DNA of 64,000 bases from Thermotogota bacterium (GTDB lineage Bacteria; Hydrothermota; Hydrothermia; LBFQ01). Position 1 is the first letter of the stretch. Each line of letters begins with the position of its first letter. Shown piece after piece: positions 2,930-38,644 of the stretch. Both the position numbers and the translations under genes were made by a program. Below the pieces are notes generated by a model that was given only the letters and a program-made list of their open reading frames with translations, made no database searches and was not told the origin of the DNA. The stretch lies in contig JAADDJ010000052.1 of the NCBI GenBank assembly GCA_013153965.1, positions 5,944-69,943 on the forward strand, read 5' to 3'.

Positions 2930-5734
2930 ATGCGCAAGCTCATAGTCAAGGGTGCGAGGCAGCATAACCTGCAGAATATAACGGTTGAGATACCCAAGGA
3001 CAGCTTTGTGGTCATAACGGGGGTATCCGGCTCCGGCAAGTCCTCCTTGGCCTTTGATGTGATATATGCGGAGGCGCAGAGGAGGTACGTGGAGAGTCTC
3101 TCGCCCTACGCCCGTCAATTCTTGGGCGTGATGGAGAAGCCGGATGTGGAGGAGATTGAGGGACTCTCTCCCGGCATAGCCATAGAGCAGCGCAAGATAA
3201 TGCGGAACCCCCGGTCAACGGTGGCGACGACGACCGAGATATACGACTACCTGCGTCTCCTGTTCGCCCGCGCCGGTACCCCCCACTGCCCCAACGACGG
3301 AACCCCTTTGCAGCGCTGGAGTGTTGATGAGATCGTAGATGTTCTCTTTAAAAAGTATCCCTATCGGAGACTGCAGATTCTGGCGCCGGTGGTAAGGGGC
3401 AAGAAAGGAGAGTTTCGCGACCTCCTCTCCAAGATAGCCAAGAGAGGATTCGTGAGGGTGCGGGTTGATGGGATAATGTACGACGTTGAGGAGGTGCCTC
3501 AACTTGACAAGAATAAGCGCCACGACATAGAGATAGTCGTTGATAGGGTGATGGTGAGGGAGGAGGACCGCAGCCGCATACACCAGTCGGTGGAGACGGC
3601 TCTCAAGGAGGCGGAGGGTCTGGTCAAGATAATAACCGACAGGGACGAGGAGGAGATCTTCAGCGAAAGTTTGGCCTGTCCCAAGTGCGGTTTCTCCATG
3701 CCGGAGCTGGAGCCGAGACTCTTCTCGTTCAACAGTCCCTACGGGGCCTGCCCCGTATGTACGGGTTTGGGCGTGAAGATGGACTTTGATCCGGGCAAGC
3801 TCATAGCCAATCCGGACCTATCAATAATGGAGGGGGCCATAAAGCCCCTATCCGAGCCGCATCCCATAACGGCCCGGGTCCTCCAGAGGATCGCCCGCAA
3901 GTACGGGGCGTCCATCCACGACCCTTGGCGTATCCTCCCCGAGCCCTTCAAGAATGTGGTCCTCTGGGGGGTGGAGGAGCCTCCCGAATCCTTGGATGAT
4001 CAGGACTTCAAGCCCCTATACAGGGATTGGGACGGGATAATCCCCCAGCTGTGGCGCAAGTACAAGAGTACGGACTCGGAGTGGGTGAGGGCCGACATAG
4101 GCCGTTATATGATATACACCACGTGTCCGGCGTGCGGAGGCTCCCGGCTCCGTAGGGAGGCCCTCTCGGTCTATGTGGCCGATAAGAACATATGGGACAT
4201 AGTGCAGATGAGCGTCAGGGACGCTCTCGCCTTCTTCCGCACCCTGAAGTTGGAAGGCAAAAGGGGCGTCATAGCCGAGCGTATAGTGGGCGAGATCGTG
4301 CGCCGTTTGAAATTCTTGGACGATGTGGGTCTGGGTTATCTGACGTTGGACCGCCGCTCCGACACGTTATCCGGAGGAGAGGAGCAGAGGGTCAGGCTGG
4401 CGACCCAGATAGGCTCGGGTCTCTCGGGTGTCATATACGTTCTGGATGAGCCCACCATAGGTTTGCATCCGAGGGATAACAGCAAGCTCATAGGGACGCT
4501 GAAGCACCTGCGGGACCTCGGGAACACGGTCATAGTGGTTGAGCACGACGAGGAGACGATACGCAACGCCGATTACATAGTGGATCTGGGTCCCGGCGCC
4601 GGCGTCTATGGGGGCCGAGTGGTGGCGCAAGGTACGGTTGAGGACATCATCCGGAGCGAGGAGTCGCTGACCGGCGCCTATCTGTCCGGGCGCAAGAGCA
4701 TTCCGGTGCCTGCCGAGAGGCGTAAGCCTAAGGACGAGTGGCTGAAGATAGTCGGGGCGAGGGAGAATAACCTGAAGAATATAACCGTCTCCATCCCCCT
4801 CGGTCTCTTCGTGGTGGTAACCGGGGTTTCGGGCTCGGGTAAATCCACGCTGGTTATGGACATCCTCTACAGGGCCTTGGCCAAGAAGCTCTACCGCTCC
4901 AAGATGGATCCGGGGGAGCATGAGACGATTCTGGGGATGGAGTACATTGACCGGGTGATTGACGTGGACCAGTCCCCCATAGGGAGAACGCCGCGCAGCA
5001 ACCCGGCCACCTACACGGGGGTTTTCACCTACATAAGGGACTTCTACGCCAAGCTGCCGGAGTCCAAGGCTCGCGGCTACAAACCTTCCCGCTTCTCCTT
5101 CAATCTGCGAGGTGGCAGGTGCGAGGCCTGCGAGGGCGAAGGGTACGTGCGGATAGAGATGCACTTTCTGCCGGATATCTTCGTCCCCTGCGAGGTGTGC
5201 CGGGGTAAGAGGTACAACGCCGAGACGCTGGAGATAAAGTACAAGGGCAAATCCATAGCCGACGTTCTGGATATGACGGTGGATGAGGCTTACGAGTTCT
5301 TTGAGGACGTGCCCACCATCCGCCGCAAGTTGCAGGTGATGATTGACGTGGGGTTGGGGTACATAAAGCTGGGCCAACCCTCAACCACCCTATCCGGAGG
5401 TGAGGCGCAGCGGATAAAGCTGGCCAAGGAGCTGTCCAAGATCCCCACGGGGAGGACGCTCTACATTCTGGATGAGCCGACTACGGGCCTCCACTTTGAT
5501 GATGTGAGGAAGTTGATAGATGTCCTCCACCGCTTCGCCGATAACGGGAATACGGTTCTGGTGATTGAGCACAACCTGGATGTGATAAAGAATGCGGATT
5601 GGGTGATAGATCTGGGTCCGGAGGGCGGAGATGAGGGGGGTTATCTGGTGGCGGAGGGGCCGCCGGAGGAGGTGGCGAAGGTTCCGGAGTCCTATACGGG
5701 GCAGTATCTAAGGAGAGTGCTGGGGAGGGGGTAG
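2930..5734 (+). CDS. uvrA: Excinuclease ABC subunit A
   Basis: 934 aa; two ABC ATPase modules ([25 protein letters not shown], second [21 protein letters not shown]) and CxxC zinc fingers. Confidence 0.95.
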
Positions 5735-34948: not shown

Positions 34949-35583
34949 CCCCTGTATATCACCTCAACGTCCGGAGGGAAGTCGCGCGCACGCACGTAAT
35001 CCGGCACCTGCGAATCGCTCTTAACGGCGATGCCGTGGAAGATGTAGGTCTCCCTGTAGGTTCCCCCGGGTGTGTGCATGACGGTCCTGATGGTGTCGGG
35101 GAAGCTGTAATCGTCATACACGCGTCTGATGCCGCCGAATTCCACCCTCAGGACCTCTCCGCCGTCGGGGCCGAAGGCCAGATACTTCACCATGGTGCCG
35201 TTTAGGGTGTATATGCGCAGCGTCATCTTGGCCTGCGGATGCCTGTAGGACTTTACGAGGGTGTCGCCCAAGTGCTTCGCGGATACGAACATGAATCCGG
35301 CCCTCTTCAGATTCTCCTCGGCGGAGCCGAAGGTCCCCATCCCCCCCTCCAGCATGCGGTGGGAGGACCGGAGCTTAAAGACCTTGCGATCCTCGGGATA
35401 GTATATTACGAGGGTGTCGGGCAGGAAGTACATTATCTGATTCACGGGTCTGACCACCCGCAGGATGGTTATCTTGGCGGGTTTCACGTAGAAGTAGCCG
35501 GATACCCGACCGTCGTCGGATTCCCTAATAAAGGAGCCCGACACCCATAAGGTGTCGGGCAGGGAGGCTGCTATCAGGAGCAT
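34939..35583 (-). CDS. Hypothetical periplasmic protein (LolA-like beta fold suspected)
   Basis: 214 aa, signal-like N-terminus, beta-rich. Weak call. Confidence 0.3.
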   Translation of the reverse strand: MLLIAASLPDTLWVSGSFIRESDDGRVSGYFYVKPAKITILRVVRPVNQIMYFLPDTLVIYYPEDRKVFKLRSSHRMLEGGMGTFGSAEENLKRAGFMFVSAKHLGDTLVKSYRHPQAKMTLRIYTLNGTMVKYLAFGPDGGEVLRVEFGGIRRVYDDYSFPDTIRTVMHTPGGTYRETYIFHGIAVKSDSQVPDYVRARDFPPDVEVIYRGWD

Positions 35584-35586
35584 CCT

Positions 35587-35985
35587 CTAATATCCGGAGT
35601 TAGCGCTGGCGGCCGCTCCGGCTACCAGACAGCAGTAGGAGCCGTAGCAGAGCGTGGCAAGGACCGTGGATGCCACGCAGCCGATGGCGGCCTTCTTCAC
35701 CTGTATGTCCTTTCCGGCCCTCTTGTAGCAGTCGGTATAGACGGCCACGTACTGGGGGTCCTTACCGACGAGACGGGTGGCCGGAGGGTCAGGCTCAAGC
35801 ACGTAGGCCGCACCCACGCCCAGAATGCCGAGGAAGAAACCGGCCGCGAGCCACAGGGTGCCGTTGACATCGTTCTGCACGTCCATCTGGGCCTGCTGGC
35901 AGGCCTCGCTGGCGGCCTGCGCCTGCAGAGCCACCGGCGCTGCTATCATGGAGACCGTTGCCAAAGTTAATGCCGCAAATCTCAT
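35587..35985 (-). CDS. Small secreted/membrane protein P1 (paralog of 37059..37424)
   Basis: Signal peptide, one TM (LWLAAGFFLGILGV), conserved PxxRLxGKxPxxVxxYx(D/E)CYxR...GC motif. Own TAGAAT promoter and canonical SD AAGGAGG 7 nt upstream. Confidence 0.5.
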   Translation of the reverse strand: MRFAALTLATVSMIAAPVALQAQAASEACQQAQMDVQNDVNGTLWLAAGFFLGILGVGAAYVLEPDPPATRLVGKDPQYVAVYTDCYKRAGKDIQVKKAAIGCVASTVLATLCYGSYCCLVAGAAASANSGY

Positions 35986-36030
35986 AACCTACCTCCTTTT
36001 TAAGGTTAGGAAGTACGAGATTCTAAGGAG
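35986..36030 (-). promoter_or_regulatory. P1 promoter (TAGAAT) plus canonical Shine-Dalgarno AGGAGG 7 nt before ATG
   Basis: Minus strand: CCTTAGAATCTCGTACTTCCTAACCTTAAAAAGGAGGTAGGTT-ATG. Contrasts with the leaderless heads elsewhere. Confidence 0.5.
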
Positions 36031-36091
36031 GAAATCCCCAAGCAACTTTCCGTTTGCTGGAAATCCTGCAACTCCATCCCGGATGGTGGAG

Positions 36092-36574
36092 CTACACCCT
36101 TTGGATGATGAGATAAAGGGAGACGAGGAACAGGAGAAGGAAGATGACACCGGTTAGGAGGGGGATCCTCTGCTCAACCTCGGTCAAACGCCTATAACCT
36201 TTGCGCTTGAGCATCTCCCACTCTCGCGAGTAGCATTGGCAAGGGAGTCGCTTTTCCATCTCATGGATGACCGCGAACTTGGCCGAGTTAAGGCGTCGGT
36301 AGGACTCCAAGTTCCTGTACCAGATGAAGCACAGGGCCATCCCCAGAGCAGCCAGAAGCGCGAGCAGGACGGGGGAGAGCATCTCCCGGCTCTGGAGGAT
36401 GGGGATGAGGGCCATCAGGGCCGAGAGGAGGGAGATGTAGAATCTGTTGGTGCGCTCTCTCCTGTCGCTGACCCTGTCCGCCATCTCCACGTAGAGTTTA
36501 TACTGCTCCAACAGGTCGTTGCATCCGCAGTTCCTGTCGCTCATATCGGGCATATCTCCATCCGCATGTTGCAC
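36092..36574 (-). CDS. Small 3-TM membrane protein, candidate effector partner of the TIR protein (SLATT-like architecture: N-terminal helix, 2 TM with short loop, helix, plus extra C-terminal TM)
   Basis: 160 aa from track. Internal ATG at 36544 (MSDRNCGCND...) forms an ATGA overlap with the TIR stop codon, giving a 150-aa product. TM1 YISLLSALMALIPIL, TM2 VLLALLAALGMALCFIW, TM3 IPLLTGVIFLLLFLVSLYLII. CxC pairs in both soluble segments. Confidence 0.5.
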   Translation of the reverse strand: MQHADGDMPDMSDRNCGCNDLLEQYKLYVEMADRVSDRRERTNRFYISLLSALMALIPILQSREMLSPVLLALLAALGMALCFIWYRNLESYRRLNSAKFAVIHEMEKRLPCQCYSREWEMLKRKGYRRLTEVEQRIPLLTGVIFLLLFLVSLYLIIQRV

Positions 36575-37047
36575 TTCTTACCCATGCACTCTCGCACATC
36601 CTCGCAATCCTTCAGCGTCTCGGACTCTATAAGTCGCCTGATCCGCTCTATTATGGCTCTGCAGTCCCATCCCACCACATCATCCGCCGCGCATTGGACG
36701 GGGCACGACAGCTTCGCGCTCCCTCGCGGTCTTATGAGGAGTACGGGTTTCGGCCTCTCAAACTTGCACTTCGCGAGGACTATCTCCTTGTTTATCCACC
36801 TGCTGTAGGTGGAATAGACTCCCCCGAGTATCAGGACCACCTGCGAGGGGGTCATCTGCCTCTTTATGGCCTCGCATAGATCCCTAACGGTGCCGGCATC
36901 ATGGATGGGGTCATCCTCGGGGACCGAGTAGTCCAAGAAGCGCACGTTCGGGTCACAGTCGTTCAATAGGCGGAGCAGACGGCTGTAATGCTCCCCGTAG
37001 CGCCACGAGTGGCTTATAAAGACCCGGAAAGTCTTCCCCCTCCCCAT
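36541..37047 (-). CDS. TIR-like domain protein (ThsB/DUF1863-like) with Cys-rich C-terminal tail
   Basis: FRVFISHSWRYGEHY (TIR beta-A FISHS motif) and SRWINKEIVLA (the W-x3-E catalytic-glutamate motif of DUF1863/ThsB). Strong SD AGGGAGGGAGG in the 11-nt gap after the P2 stop. Confidence 0.7.
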   Translation of the reverse strand: MGRGKTFRVFISHSWRYGEHYSRLLRLLNDCDPNVRFLDYSVPEDDPIHDAGTVRDLCEAIKRQMTPSQVVLILGGVYSTYSRWINKEIVLAKCKFERPKPVLLIRPRGSAKLSCPVQCAADDVVGWDCRAIIERIRRLIESETLKDCEDVRECMGKKCNMRMEICPI

Positions 37048-37058
37048 GGCCTCCCTCC

Positions 37059-37424
37059 CTAATACTTTATCGTGAAGACGGCGAGGCAGGATAGGGAGGT
37101 GTAGCCGAGGATGCAGCCCGCCGTGGAGGATGTGAGACGCAACTTCCGTCGGTATCGGCTATAGCACTCGCTGTATATCCGGACGAAGGTGGGCGATTTG
37201 CCTATAAGCCGTGCGTAGGAGGGATGAGGTTTGACGGTGTAAGCTATGAGCGGTATGATAGGGGCCGTCGTAGGCGTGAATAGAGCCGCCCCGAACCCCA
37301 GAGCGAACCACAGAACCGGATCCTCATCCTCCGCCGCGTCCTTCATAGCCATCTGACATATCCCGCTGGCCCCACCGTAGGACTGCGTGGAAGGCACGGA
37401 CACAAAGAGAAACGGCAAAAGCAT
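37059..37424 (-). CDS. Small secreted/membrane protein P2 (paralog of 35587..35985)
   Basis: Signal peptide, LWFALGFGAALF TM, same RLIGKSPTFVRIYSECYSR...GC motif as P1. Start 1 nt after the glycosyltransferase stop. Confidence 0.5.
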   Translation of the reverse strand: MLLPFLFVSVPSTQSYGGASGICQMAMKDAAEDEDPVLWFALGFGAALFTPTTAPIIPLIAYTVKPHPSYARLIGKSPTFVRIYSECYSRYRRKLRLTSSTAGCILGYTSLSCLAVFTIKY

Positions 37425-37425
37425 G

Positions 37426-38616
37426 CTAACGGACCGTGCTCAAGCTATCCTTCACCACATGCACTATCCTCTCCAAAGTCCCAGGCAAGGCGGATTCAAC
37501 CCTGTCCCAAACGGGTAGCCTCGGCGAGGGAACGGTCTCGTTCTCGTACTCCTTGAAGGCCTCATCTATGCAGTCGGAGAATATCTCTATGTAGCGCAAC
37601 TCCCTGTGAATGTTGAACTCAAGACCGTTGAGCAGGGATATGGTCTCGTACGTATCCACGTAGTCCTTGGCCGTAGTTATGTAGGTTTGCTTTATGGTGC
37701 GCTGAACCCCACTTGAGAAGATGACACCCCGGGACGAGAGCTCAACGAGGAAGGTCTTGAATATGTCCGTGACCATGCGACGCAGATCATCGCCTGGGCG
37801 GTGCTTGTGGTCGTACCTGTGGGCTATCTGCACCTGAACCATCTCCTCTATCCGCATGGTCCTGTAGGCTTCGGCCAGTATGCTCACCTCCATACCCCAA
37901 TCCGAGGGGATGCGGAGGCGACGGAAGACATCTACGTATCCTGCCATCTCTCCGGCGAGCGGATAGCGGAAGTCCCCCATGTACTCAAGGAACGTGTCGT
38001 ACCCGAAGATGATCTTCAGGGCCCGGATCATGGGAAAGTAGAAGAGCCTGACCACCCGACCGTAGAGCCTCTTGCCATAGCGGGCGTAAAAACCCTTGGC
38101 GAATCTGTAGTTTAGGCGGGCTATGGGATAGGCGAGCAGAAGCGGCATCTCCGCCGTGTAGGTCTTTATATCCGCATCGTGAAGGACCAGAACGTCCGTC
38201 TCCCTCTCACCCACCACGTAGCCTATACCCATCCATACGGCCGTCCCCTTCCCCCTCCTGCCGAGAGCGAACTCCCGGGCTATGGTCTGCCTTATCTCCC
38301 GCAGATGAGGGTTGTCGTTCCATATGACCGTTCCCTTACCCCGAAGGATATCCTTGACTATCCGAAGGGCGGTCTTGAACTCGTCGTGCGTGGCTCGGTC
38401 AAGGACGATATAGACCCGGTGTATCCCCTCCGTACTCGCTATGGTTCCGAGGATCTTGACCATCTCCTCCGTGGAGAAGTCGGTGTATAGGGAAGGTATC
38501 AGGACCCCCACCTTCTTGCCCGTCTGCTCAATCTCGGAGGACAGGACCACCGCGTTGCGCTTTCCGGGACGCAGGTAGGGGATGGTGGGTACCAAATTCT
38601 GATGGAGGTCTGCCAT
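37426..38616 (-). CDS. Glycosyltransferase related to mannosyl-/glucosyl-3-phosphoglycerate synthase (GT55/GT81-like)
   Basis: 396 aa; GKGTAVWMGIGYVVGE...HDADIKTY and HRYDHKH segments resemble MpgS (GKGEGML...DADNY; H.H..KG). TACAAT then 8 nt then ATG. Confidence 0.5.
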   Translation of the reverse strand: MADLHQNLVPTIPYLRPGKRNAVVLSSEIEQTGKKVGVLIPSLYTDFSTEEMVKILGTIASTEGIHRVYIVLDRATHDEFKTALRIVKDILRGKGTVIWNDNPHLREIRQTIAREFALGRRGKGTAVWMGIGYVVGERETDVLVLHDADIKTYTAEMPLLLAYPIARLNYRFAKGFYARYGKRLYGRVVRLFYFPMIRALKIIFGYDTFLEYMGDFRYPLAGEMAGYVDVFRRLRIPSDWGMEVSILAEAYRTMRIEEMVQVQIAHRYDHKHRPGDDLRRMVTDIFKTFLVELSSRGVIFSSGVQRTIKQTYITTAKDYVDTYETISLLNGLEFNIHRELRYIEIFSDCIDEAFKEYENETVPSPRLPVWDRVESALPGTLERIVHVVKDSLSTVR

Positions 38617-38644
38617 GTGAAAAAATTGTACGGCTGAATGCCGT

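Follow-up and report, generated by a model that had tools for sequence, protein, structure and literature searches.

A predicted Thoeris-type pair of a ThsB-like TIR protein and an 8xMP/RipA family membrane protein, inserted among housekeeping genes of a thermophilic 'Thermotogae' genome

A thsB-like gene encoding a TIR-only protein (168 amino acids; 36541..37047, minus strand) and the overlapping gene of a small inner-membrane protein (153 amino acids; 36092..36553, minus strand) are located in contig Ga0072504_119142, which was deposited as a 'Thermotogae bacterium' metagenome-assembled genome (MAG). The window, i.e., the whole stretch of DNA analyzed here, comprises 64,000 nucleotides. The locus raises the question of whether the two genes form an antiviral system and, if so, how this system relates to the known TIR-based ones. 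An earlier note, made from the sequence alone, had proposed an undescribed module of a TIR protein and a SLATT-like pore. According to the results reported here, the two genes probably, if by no means certainly, constitute a Thoeris-type antiviral signaling module which entered a block of housekeeping genes of a thermophile by insertion, and in which a signal of the TIR protein gates the membrane protein and aborts the infection.

The earlier note had assigned the product of 36541..37047 to the DUF1863/ThsB TIR proteins on the basis of the motifs VFISHSW (residues 9–15) and SRWINKEI (residues 82–89), and it had staked this claim on a profile search. The search returned a significant match to the Pfam family ThsB_TIR (PF08937; E = 1.1e-13, 51.8 bits, cut-off 21.2), and the ThsB models of PADLOC matched as well (E = 2.9e-5). 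The TIR core covers approximately residues 5–140, with E88 as the catalytic glutamate. In an alignment of 120 homologues of this protein, the residues F10, S12, H13, S14, W15, W84, I85, and E88 are invariant. The AlphaFold2 model (predicted local distance difference test score, pLDDT, 89) displays a flavodoxin-like fold, and its top matches by TM-score are a TIR protein of Bacillus cereus (8fz9), ThsB of Escherichia coli (8wcf, 8v6t), and MTH538 (1eiw). Judged by its sequence, the protein is a ThsB/DUF1863-type TIR, whose predicted catalytic glutamate is intact. It shares 44.7% amino acid sequence identity with the type IV Thoeris TIR of E. coli 328 (EcTIR), 38.5% with the type VII TIR of Pseudohongiella, and about 34–38% with the TIRs of types VII/VIII, while it is essentially unrelated to the TIRs of type I and type V (19.8% identity to type V over a partial alignment). 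The Cys-rich C-terminal tail that had been pointed out before is indeed present (36544..36606, residues 148–168) and has the spacing C148-x5-C154-x4-C159-x6-C166, which is shared in the alignment by the closest homologue, P0122, alone.

The membrane protein was identified as a member of the family PF24838 (8xMP, octameric membrane protein family) with an E-value of 5.7e-41 (140 bits, cut-off 30). Its residues 22–153 align with positions 1–135 of the 136 positions of the profile, so that it is a full-length member. The precomputed annotation of every listed homologue of this protein is PF24838, too, and NCBI lists a homologue from Archaeoglobus profundus as 'RipA family octameric membrane protein'. 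The family is large, comprising 3,937 clusters at 50% identity (E ≤ 0.001) in Bacteria and Archaea; the 150 best-scoring members listed are all small proteins of approximately 125–240 amino acids, and the size and the layout with three transmembrane (TM) helices of the window protein agree with the rest of the family. Neither a SIR2, Macro, SLOG, nor STING domain was found in the Pfam scan of the protein, in accordance with the expectation of the earlier note, and nothing relevant was returned by the NCBIfam scan.

The three TM helices, the short loop between two of them, and the pairs of cysteine residues, all of which had been read from the sequence before, were confirmed. The structural model (AlphaFold2, pLDDT 87) contains three long helices (residues 11–55, 61–101, and 109–152), the first two of which are joined by a short loop (residues 56–60), and probably corresponds to a layout of an N-terminal cytoplasmic helix leading into TM1, an outer loop of five residues, TM2, a cytoplasmic helical segment of approximately 45 residues, and TM3. 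The Lys/Arg-rich flanks of the TM helices suggest, following the positive-inside rule, that both soluble segments are cytoplasmic and within reach of a product of the TIR protein. Conserved motifs are found in both of them, LLEQYKLYVEMADRxSxRR in the N-terminal helix and SYRQLNxxKFxVIHEME / LPxxCYxxEW between TM2 and TM3. The CxC pairs are CGC at residues 9–11 (36521..36529) and CQC at residues 105–107; the N-terminal CGC is common only to the window pair and the closest homologous pair (P0122/P0002). Together with the four cysteine residues of the TIR tail, it could represent a metal-binding or disulfide adaptation of a thermophilic lineage.

The resemblance to SLATT proteins, which the earlier note had regarded as the closest, was not borne out. 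No match to SLATT_1-6 or DUF4231 was obtained at E ≤ 1 in the Pfam scan, which did pick up SLATT_1 in the partners of sister TIRs. When 8xMP was compared by hhalign with the SLATT_1 proteins that accompany this TIR clade, the probability was 3.5%, and the model contains three TM helices plus an N-terminal cytoplasmic helix and not a two-TM hairpin. Likewise, membership in the DUF2270/ThsF family (PF10028) was rejected (no match at E ≤ 1 in the Pfam scan). No model of PADLOC, which we understand to contain models of Pycsar TM effectors, matched the protein at E ≤ 1.

The next open reading frame on the strand of the TIR gene extends from 36574 to 36092 (36092..36574, minus strand). Its first in-frame ATG at position 36553 (MPDMSDRN...), which is also the start in the public record, yields the protein of 153 amino acids and an overlap of 13 nt with the 3' end of the TIR gene (36541..36553, minus strand). 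An overlap of 13 nt was also found in the closest homologous pair (locus L082). Alternative starts are ATG 36544 (150 amino acids) and GTG 36574 (160 amino acids). The TIR stop codon TGA is located at 36543..36541 and forms part of an ATGA at 36544..36541, as reported previously; the overlap of 34 nt, which had been attributed to the first ATG, results from GTG 36574 instead. Since GGAG is present 11 nt upstream of ATG 36544, translation might plausibly begin there as well, with the ATGA as an overlap of 4 nt. In either case, the overlap of the two reading frames suggests translational coupling.

The conservation of the pair was assessed in a scan with the 8xMP profile covering one genome per species, from which 80 loci of Bacteria and Archaea were kept. 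By the Pfam count, a ThsB_TIR gene is located directly upstream of the 8xMP gene on the same strand in 32 of these loci, and in most of the 32 pairs the genes overlap or are less than 100 nt apart. The neighborhood check proposed in the earlier note thus returned a pair conserved as a conflict-type module. Its hosts include Methanosarcinales, Archaeoglobus, Methanocella, Dehalococcoidia, Atribacteria, Aminicenantes, Salinibacillus, and Micavibrio. The divergence of the TIR proteins is moderately correlated with that of the 8xMP proteins (Mantel r = 0.34, p ~5e-4, n = 37 pairs). In a reciprocal scan with the TIR profile, 38 loci, including near-duplicates, were recovered from the prophage-like contigs of IMG/VR. 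Here, the TIR clade was accompanied by a caspase-like protease in 18 loci and by a SLATT_1/DUF4231 protein in 10; 8xMP was the partner in 7, in both gene orders. This exchange of partners argues for 8xMP filling the slot of validated Thoeris effectors beside the same TIR clade. Furthermore, 8xMP genes were found on 34 plasmid records, and elsewhere they adjoin MTase-Mrr (MTase, methyltransferase), DUF1156-MTase, AbiJ-type, and STAND genes.

Several 8xMP genes are located beside partners other than ThsB TIRs. In eight loci of Bacteroidota (L008, L017, L022, L024, L052, L056, L065, and L072), a gene encoding a caspase-like Peptidase_C14 protein directly precedes the 8xMP gene (~5000–5450). These eight caspases are 37–48% identical over their full length to type-IV-Thoeris-like caspases, and genes for a TPR-histidine kinase and a LuxR-type response regulator are located upstream. 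In locus L021, the caspase gene is located downstream of 8xMP. An alphaproteobacterial MAG (L058:3808-5456) harbors consecutive genes for a CAP12/Pycsar-type TIR (194 amino acids), a prokaryotic STING protein (204 amino acids), and 8xMP; this trio looks like a split TIR-STING followed by a membrane protein. In Dehalococcoidia (L079:2217-5462 and L035:5010-6768), an AbiJ_NTD4-DUF7014 protein is encoded next to 8xMP, on either side, and genes for N6_N4 methylase-Mrr fusions are also present beside 8xMP in the dehalococcoidial set (L079, L035, L012:3205-5498, and L055), which indicates a defence-island context. TIR_2 fusion proteins are encoded adjacent to 8xMP in L002, L051, and L046; in the last one, an Anaerolinea MAG (L046:939-3134), a 731-amino-acid fusion of TIR_2 and a phosphofructokinase-like part is encoded immediately downstream of the 8xMP gene.

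The window module has a precedent in the literature. Yirmiya et al. surveyed TIR genes in defence islands and described 29 putative Thoeris configurations, from which seven new types, V–XI, were validated (bioRxiv 10.64898/2025.12.03.692087). The row 'ga0072504_11914247 / 3TM / cluster 2556961318' of their Table S1 contains the exact sequence of the window TIR, with '3TM' given as the effector, and the '3TM' class accounts for at least about 100 rows of this table (bioRxiv 10.64898/2025.12.03.692087). Other TIRs labeled '3TM' in Table S1 are 45–70% identical to the TIRs found here beside 8xMP. The TIR + 3TM configuration and the window pair are, therefore, the same object, and the module is a catalogued, predicted Thoeris candidate and thus already known; the description as undescribed in the earlier note has to be withdrawn. 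The 3TM entry carries no family name, signal, or mechanism and no link to PF24838/RipA or to the caspase, STING, and AbiJ partners. What is added here is the identity of the effector family (PF24838, not SLATT), the counts of the pairing, the evidence for the insertion, and the wider set of 8xMP partners. None of the Thoeris types validated by experiment (I–XI) corresponds to the module, which agrees with the previous statement that it does not fit any described type.

Among the characterized systems, type IV Thoeris (a TIR and the caspase-like ThsE/PsCaspase, with N7-cyclic ADP-ribose, N7-cADPR, as signal) possesses the TIR most closely related to that of the window; the E. coli 328 protein shows the same motifs (FISHSW...YSKWI..E) and makes N7-cADPR upon infection. 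Its effector, however, is a soluble arginine-specific protease, whereas the effector candidate of the window is a three-TM membrane protein. Type VII (a TIR and the SLATT protein ThsH) likewise combines a small TM effector with a TIR that falls into this clade in the broad sense and uses canonical cADPR, which serves as signal in types VII and VIII, but its SLATT protein has two TM helices where 8xMP has three, and homology between the two is not detectable. ThsF of type V (DUF2270, PF10028; signal 3'cADPR) is a small three-TM protein as is 8xMP. It was predicted by AlphaFold3 to form a ring-shaped homo-oligomer with basic pockets between the protomers and is toxic upon signal, and both ThsF and ThsH are toxic when supplied with the cognate cADPR isomer (bioRxiv 10.64898/2025.12.03.692087). 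Type V differs from the window module in that the window protein does not match PF10028 and the TIRs are unrelated. Pycsar/Pucsar, too, has a three-TM effector (PycTM, 'pJV1-spdB3 family 3TM') whose gating depends on a nucleotide second messenger; the partner of PycTM is a cyclase, that of the window 8xMP a TIR. Effectors that are small proteins with several TM helices are established in Thoeris II, V, and VII, CBASS, and Pycsar.

The pair is part of a segment of approximately 1.4 kb (35986..37425) comprising the gene of a 121-amino-acid protein (p121), the TIR gene, the 8xMP gene, and a spacer of 106 nt, within a row of closely spaced housekeeping genes of one orientation (M16 peptidase, a gene for a 396-amino-acid protein, YidD, RNase HII). 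Synteny was compared with the nearest relatives available (L125, L126, and L129). In all three, the gene for the 396-amino-acid protein, whose product is 89% identical to that of window 37432..38637, is directly followed by the orthologue of p132 (75–79%), the gene for a 212-amino-acid protein, and YidD, and the order continues to RNase HII. Because 35986..37425 has no counterpart at the syntenic site in the relatives, the segment is a lineage-specific insertion. The earlier note had seen no obvious island here. The near-native GC (guanine-cytosine) content, which does not mark the segment, agrees with this view, but the absence of p121, TIR, and 8xMP from the nearest relatives does not. Flanking direct or inverted repeats and att-like sites were not found at the bounds of the insertion, nor were convincing promoter or terminator signals bounding it.

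The following sequence of events is proposed. Phage infection would activate the TIR protein, which would convert NAD+ (nicotinamide adenine dinucleotide) to a messenger of the cyclic ADP-ribose type. Because the window TIR resembles the TIRs of types IV and VII/VIII, N7-cADPR or canonical cADPR are the best guesses for this signal. The messenger may then bind to 8xMP, pre-assembled as a ring-shaped oligomer, at a conserved and basic helical surface on the cytoplasmic side, which would be formed by the motif-bearing N-terminal helix (LLEQYKLYVEMADRxSxRR) and the likewise conserved segment between TM2 and TM3 (SYRQLNxxKFxVIHEME / LPxxCYxxEW). Upon binding, the ring would open or disrupt the inner membrane, the membrane potential would collapse, and the infection would be aborted. 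Such an opening would presumably parallel the toxicity of ThsF and ThsH with their cognate isomers.

A number of observations weigh against this mechanism. The cytoplasmic motifs of 8xMP are alike beside a TIR, a caspase, or neither; the conserved basic surface is independent of the partner and, therefore, does not necessarily constitute a binding pocket for the signal of a TIR. No nucleotide-binding domain was detected in 8xMP, for which the Pfam scan gave the 8xMP domain alone. The search of the PDB sequences by phmmer and with the profile gave no 8xMP match, and Foldseek of the model against the PDB returned nothing at E ≤ 0.001 and no specific fold relative; the octameric state is predicted from the family name. 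Next to nine 8xMP genes, a type-IV-like caspase is encoded but no TIR within 5 kb, and these loci are not explained by a pure model of a TIR signal gating 8xMP. Approximately 30 of the 80 8xMP genes lack an obvious immune neighbor. The host is thermophilic, and the mechanism does not account for the Cys-rich tail of the TIR protein. Moreover, '3TM' is a catalogue label (Fig. 1C, Table S1) and was not among the configurations picked for experiment (bioRxiv 10.64898/2025.12.03.692087). Our literature searches gave no paper that reports a test of the TIR + 3TM class or names its effector family, and none describing the family was found in searches on 8xMP, PF24838, and RipA with octamer. The name RipA presumably refers to RipA of Francisella tularensis, a putative member of PF24838. 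This RipA is a constitutively expressed, non-lethal cytoplasmic-membrane protein required for intracellular growth; its gene stands alone, is transcribed independently, and has a genetic link to LpxA, whereas the window 8xMP is paired with a TIR. The name is a caution that not every member of PF24838 need be a suicide pore.

The partner independence of the motifs would fit a reversed logic, in which 8xMP is a membrane sensor (of phage-induced envelope perturbation) or an anchor, and the partner is the executioner, i.e., the TIR acts as an NAD+-depleting NADase or, in Bacteroidota, the caspase-like protein as a protease. Partners of 8xMP can indeed be effectors themselves (TIR-less caspases, the CAP12/Pycsar-type TIR with STING in L058, TIR_2 fusions), and overlapping genes would suit a stoichiometric complex. 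This explanation deserves attention but is considered unlikely, given that the window TIR falls into a small TIR-only clade whose characterized members (EcTIR of type IV, types VII/VIII) are signal producers and phage sensors, that 8xMP holds the slot of proven effectors in this clade, and that small multi-TM effectors are established in the systems named above. It is quite improbable that the pair has no role in immunity and consists of a RipA-like envelope-homeostasis protein and a TIR-fold protein of the MTH538 type with a regulatory or nucleotide-processing role. The NCBI family name (with the reservation on RipA made above), the housekeeping neighbors in the window, and the many 8xMP genes without immune neighbors would be in line with such a role, but the segment is an insertion missing from close relatives, the pair is spread patchily across domains, including prophage-like contigs and plasmids, immune-type partners recur (caspase, STING, AbiJ_NTD4, STAND, and restriction-modification genes), and the catalytic glutamate is invariant. 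An addiction pair similar to toxin-antitoxin systems, in which one protein is a constitutive toxin (the membrane protein, or the reverse), the other one neutralizes it, and the cassette is kept selfishly with no signaling involved, is hardly to be expected. Such a pair would be compact, overlapping, and mobile, as is the two-gene unit that occurs on plasmids and in prophage-like contigs; the strictly conserved catalytic residues of the TIR and the replacement of 8xMP by caspase and SLATT partners, however, point to enzymatic signaling, and the frequent occurrence of 8xMP without a TIR speaks against an obligatory antidote.

A broader view of the family is doubtful, though less so than the last two explanations. 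Instead of yet another pore opened by a signal, the 8xMP/RipA family might be a hub at the membrane that serves prokaryotic immunity in general. The TIR-8xMP pair would then follow a logic other than that of canonical Thoeris, and RipA, a virulence factor of Francisella, would have been domesticated from a membrane module of immunity. Its interchangeable partners may be ThsB TIRs, TIR-less type-IV-like caspases under two-component control, a split TIR + STING, and AbiJ_NTD4-DUF7014 proteins, and 8xMP itself may serve as a sensor of envelope damage or as an executioner activated by a protease or by oligomerization.

The gene of p121 (37059..37424, minus strand) belongs to the inserted segment and lies outside the conserved TIR-8xMP module; its product matched no family of Pfam, NCBIfam, or PADLOC. 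On the other side of the pair, p132 (132 amino acids, 35587..35985, minus strand), a predicted secreted or membrane protein, is encoded by a conserved host gene flanking the insertion, likewise outside the module. The orthologues of p132 (48–72% identity) in relatives are always located beside the block of YidD and the 212-amino-acid protein. Both proteins, which bracket the TIR-8xMP pair, are Cys-rich near the C-terminus and without a family match, and they are paralogues (30% identity, E = 8e-19). The relatives carry the p132 copy only, with no p121 at the syntenic position; p121 either goes back to an old duplication or came in with the inserted segment. As parts of the module, p121 and p132 were rejected, and they occur in no other TIR-8xMP locus. 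A terminator-like hairpin of 11 bp, GC-rich and followed by a T-rich tail, was observed at 35536..35560 (minus strand), just inside the start of a gene for a 214-amino-acid protein downstream of p132. Five such terminator-like sites are present in the region, while 1.1 would be expected.

The pair is real, yet its exact TIR gene is already part of a public catalogue of predicted TIR signaling systems. If validated, the TIR-8xMP pair would be a further effector class of the Thoeris family. A signal-gated pore activity, if shown, would bear on the biology of tularemia through the name RipA, provided that the Francisella protein is a member of the family. For PF24838, with its about 3,900 clusters at 50% identity in Bacteria and Archaea, validation of the pair would provide the first function.

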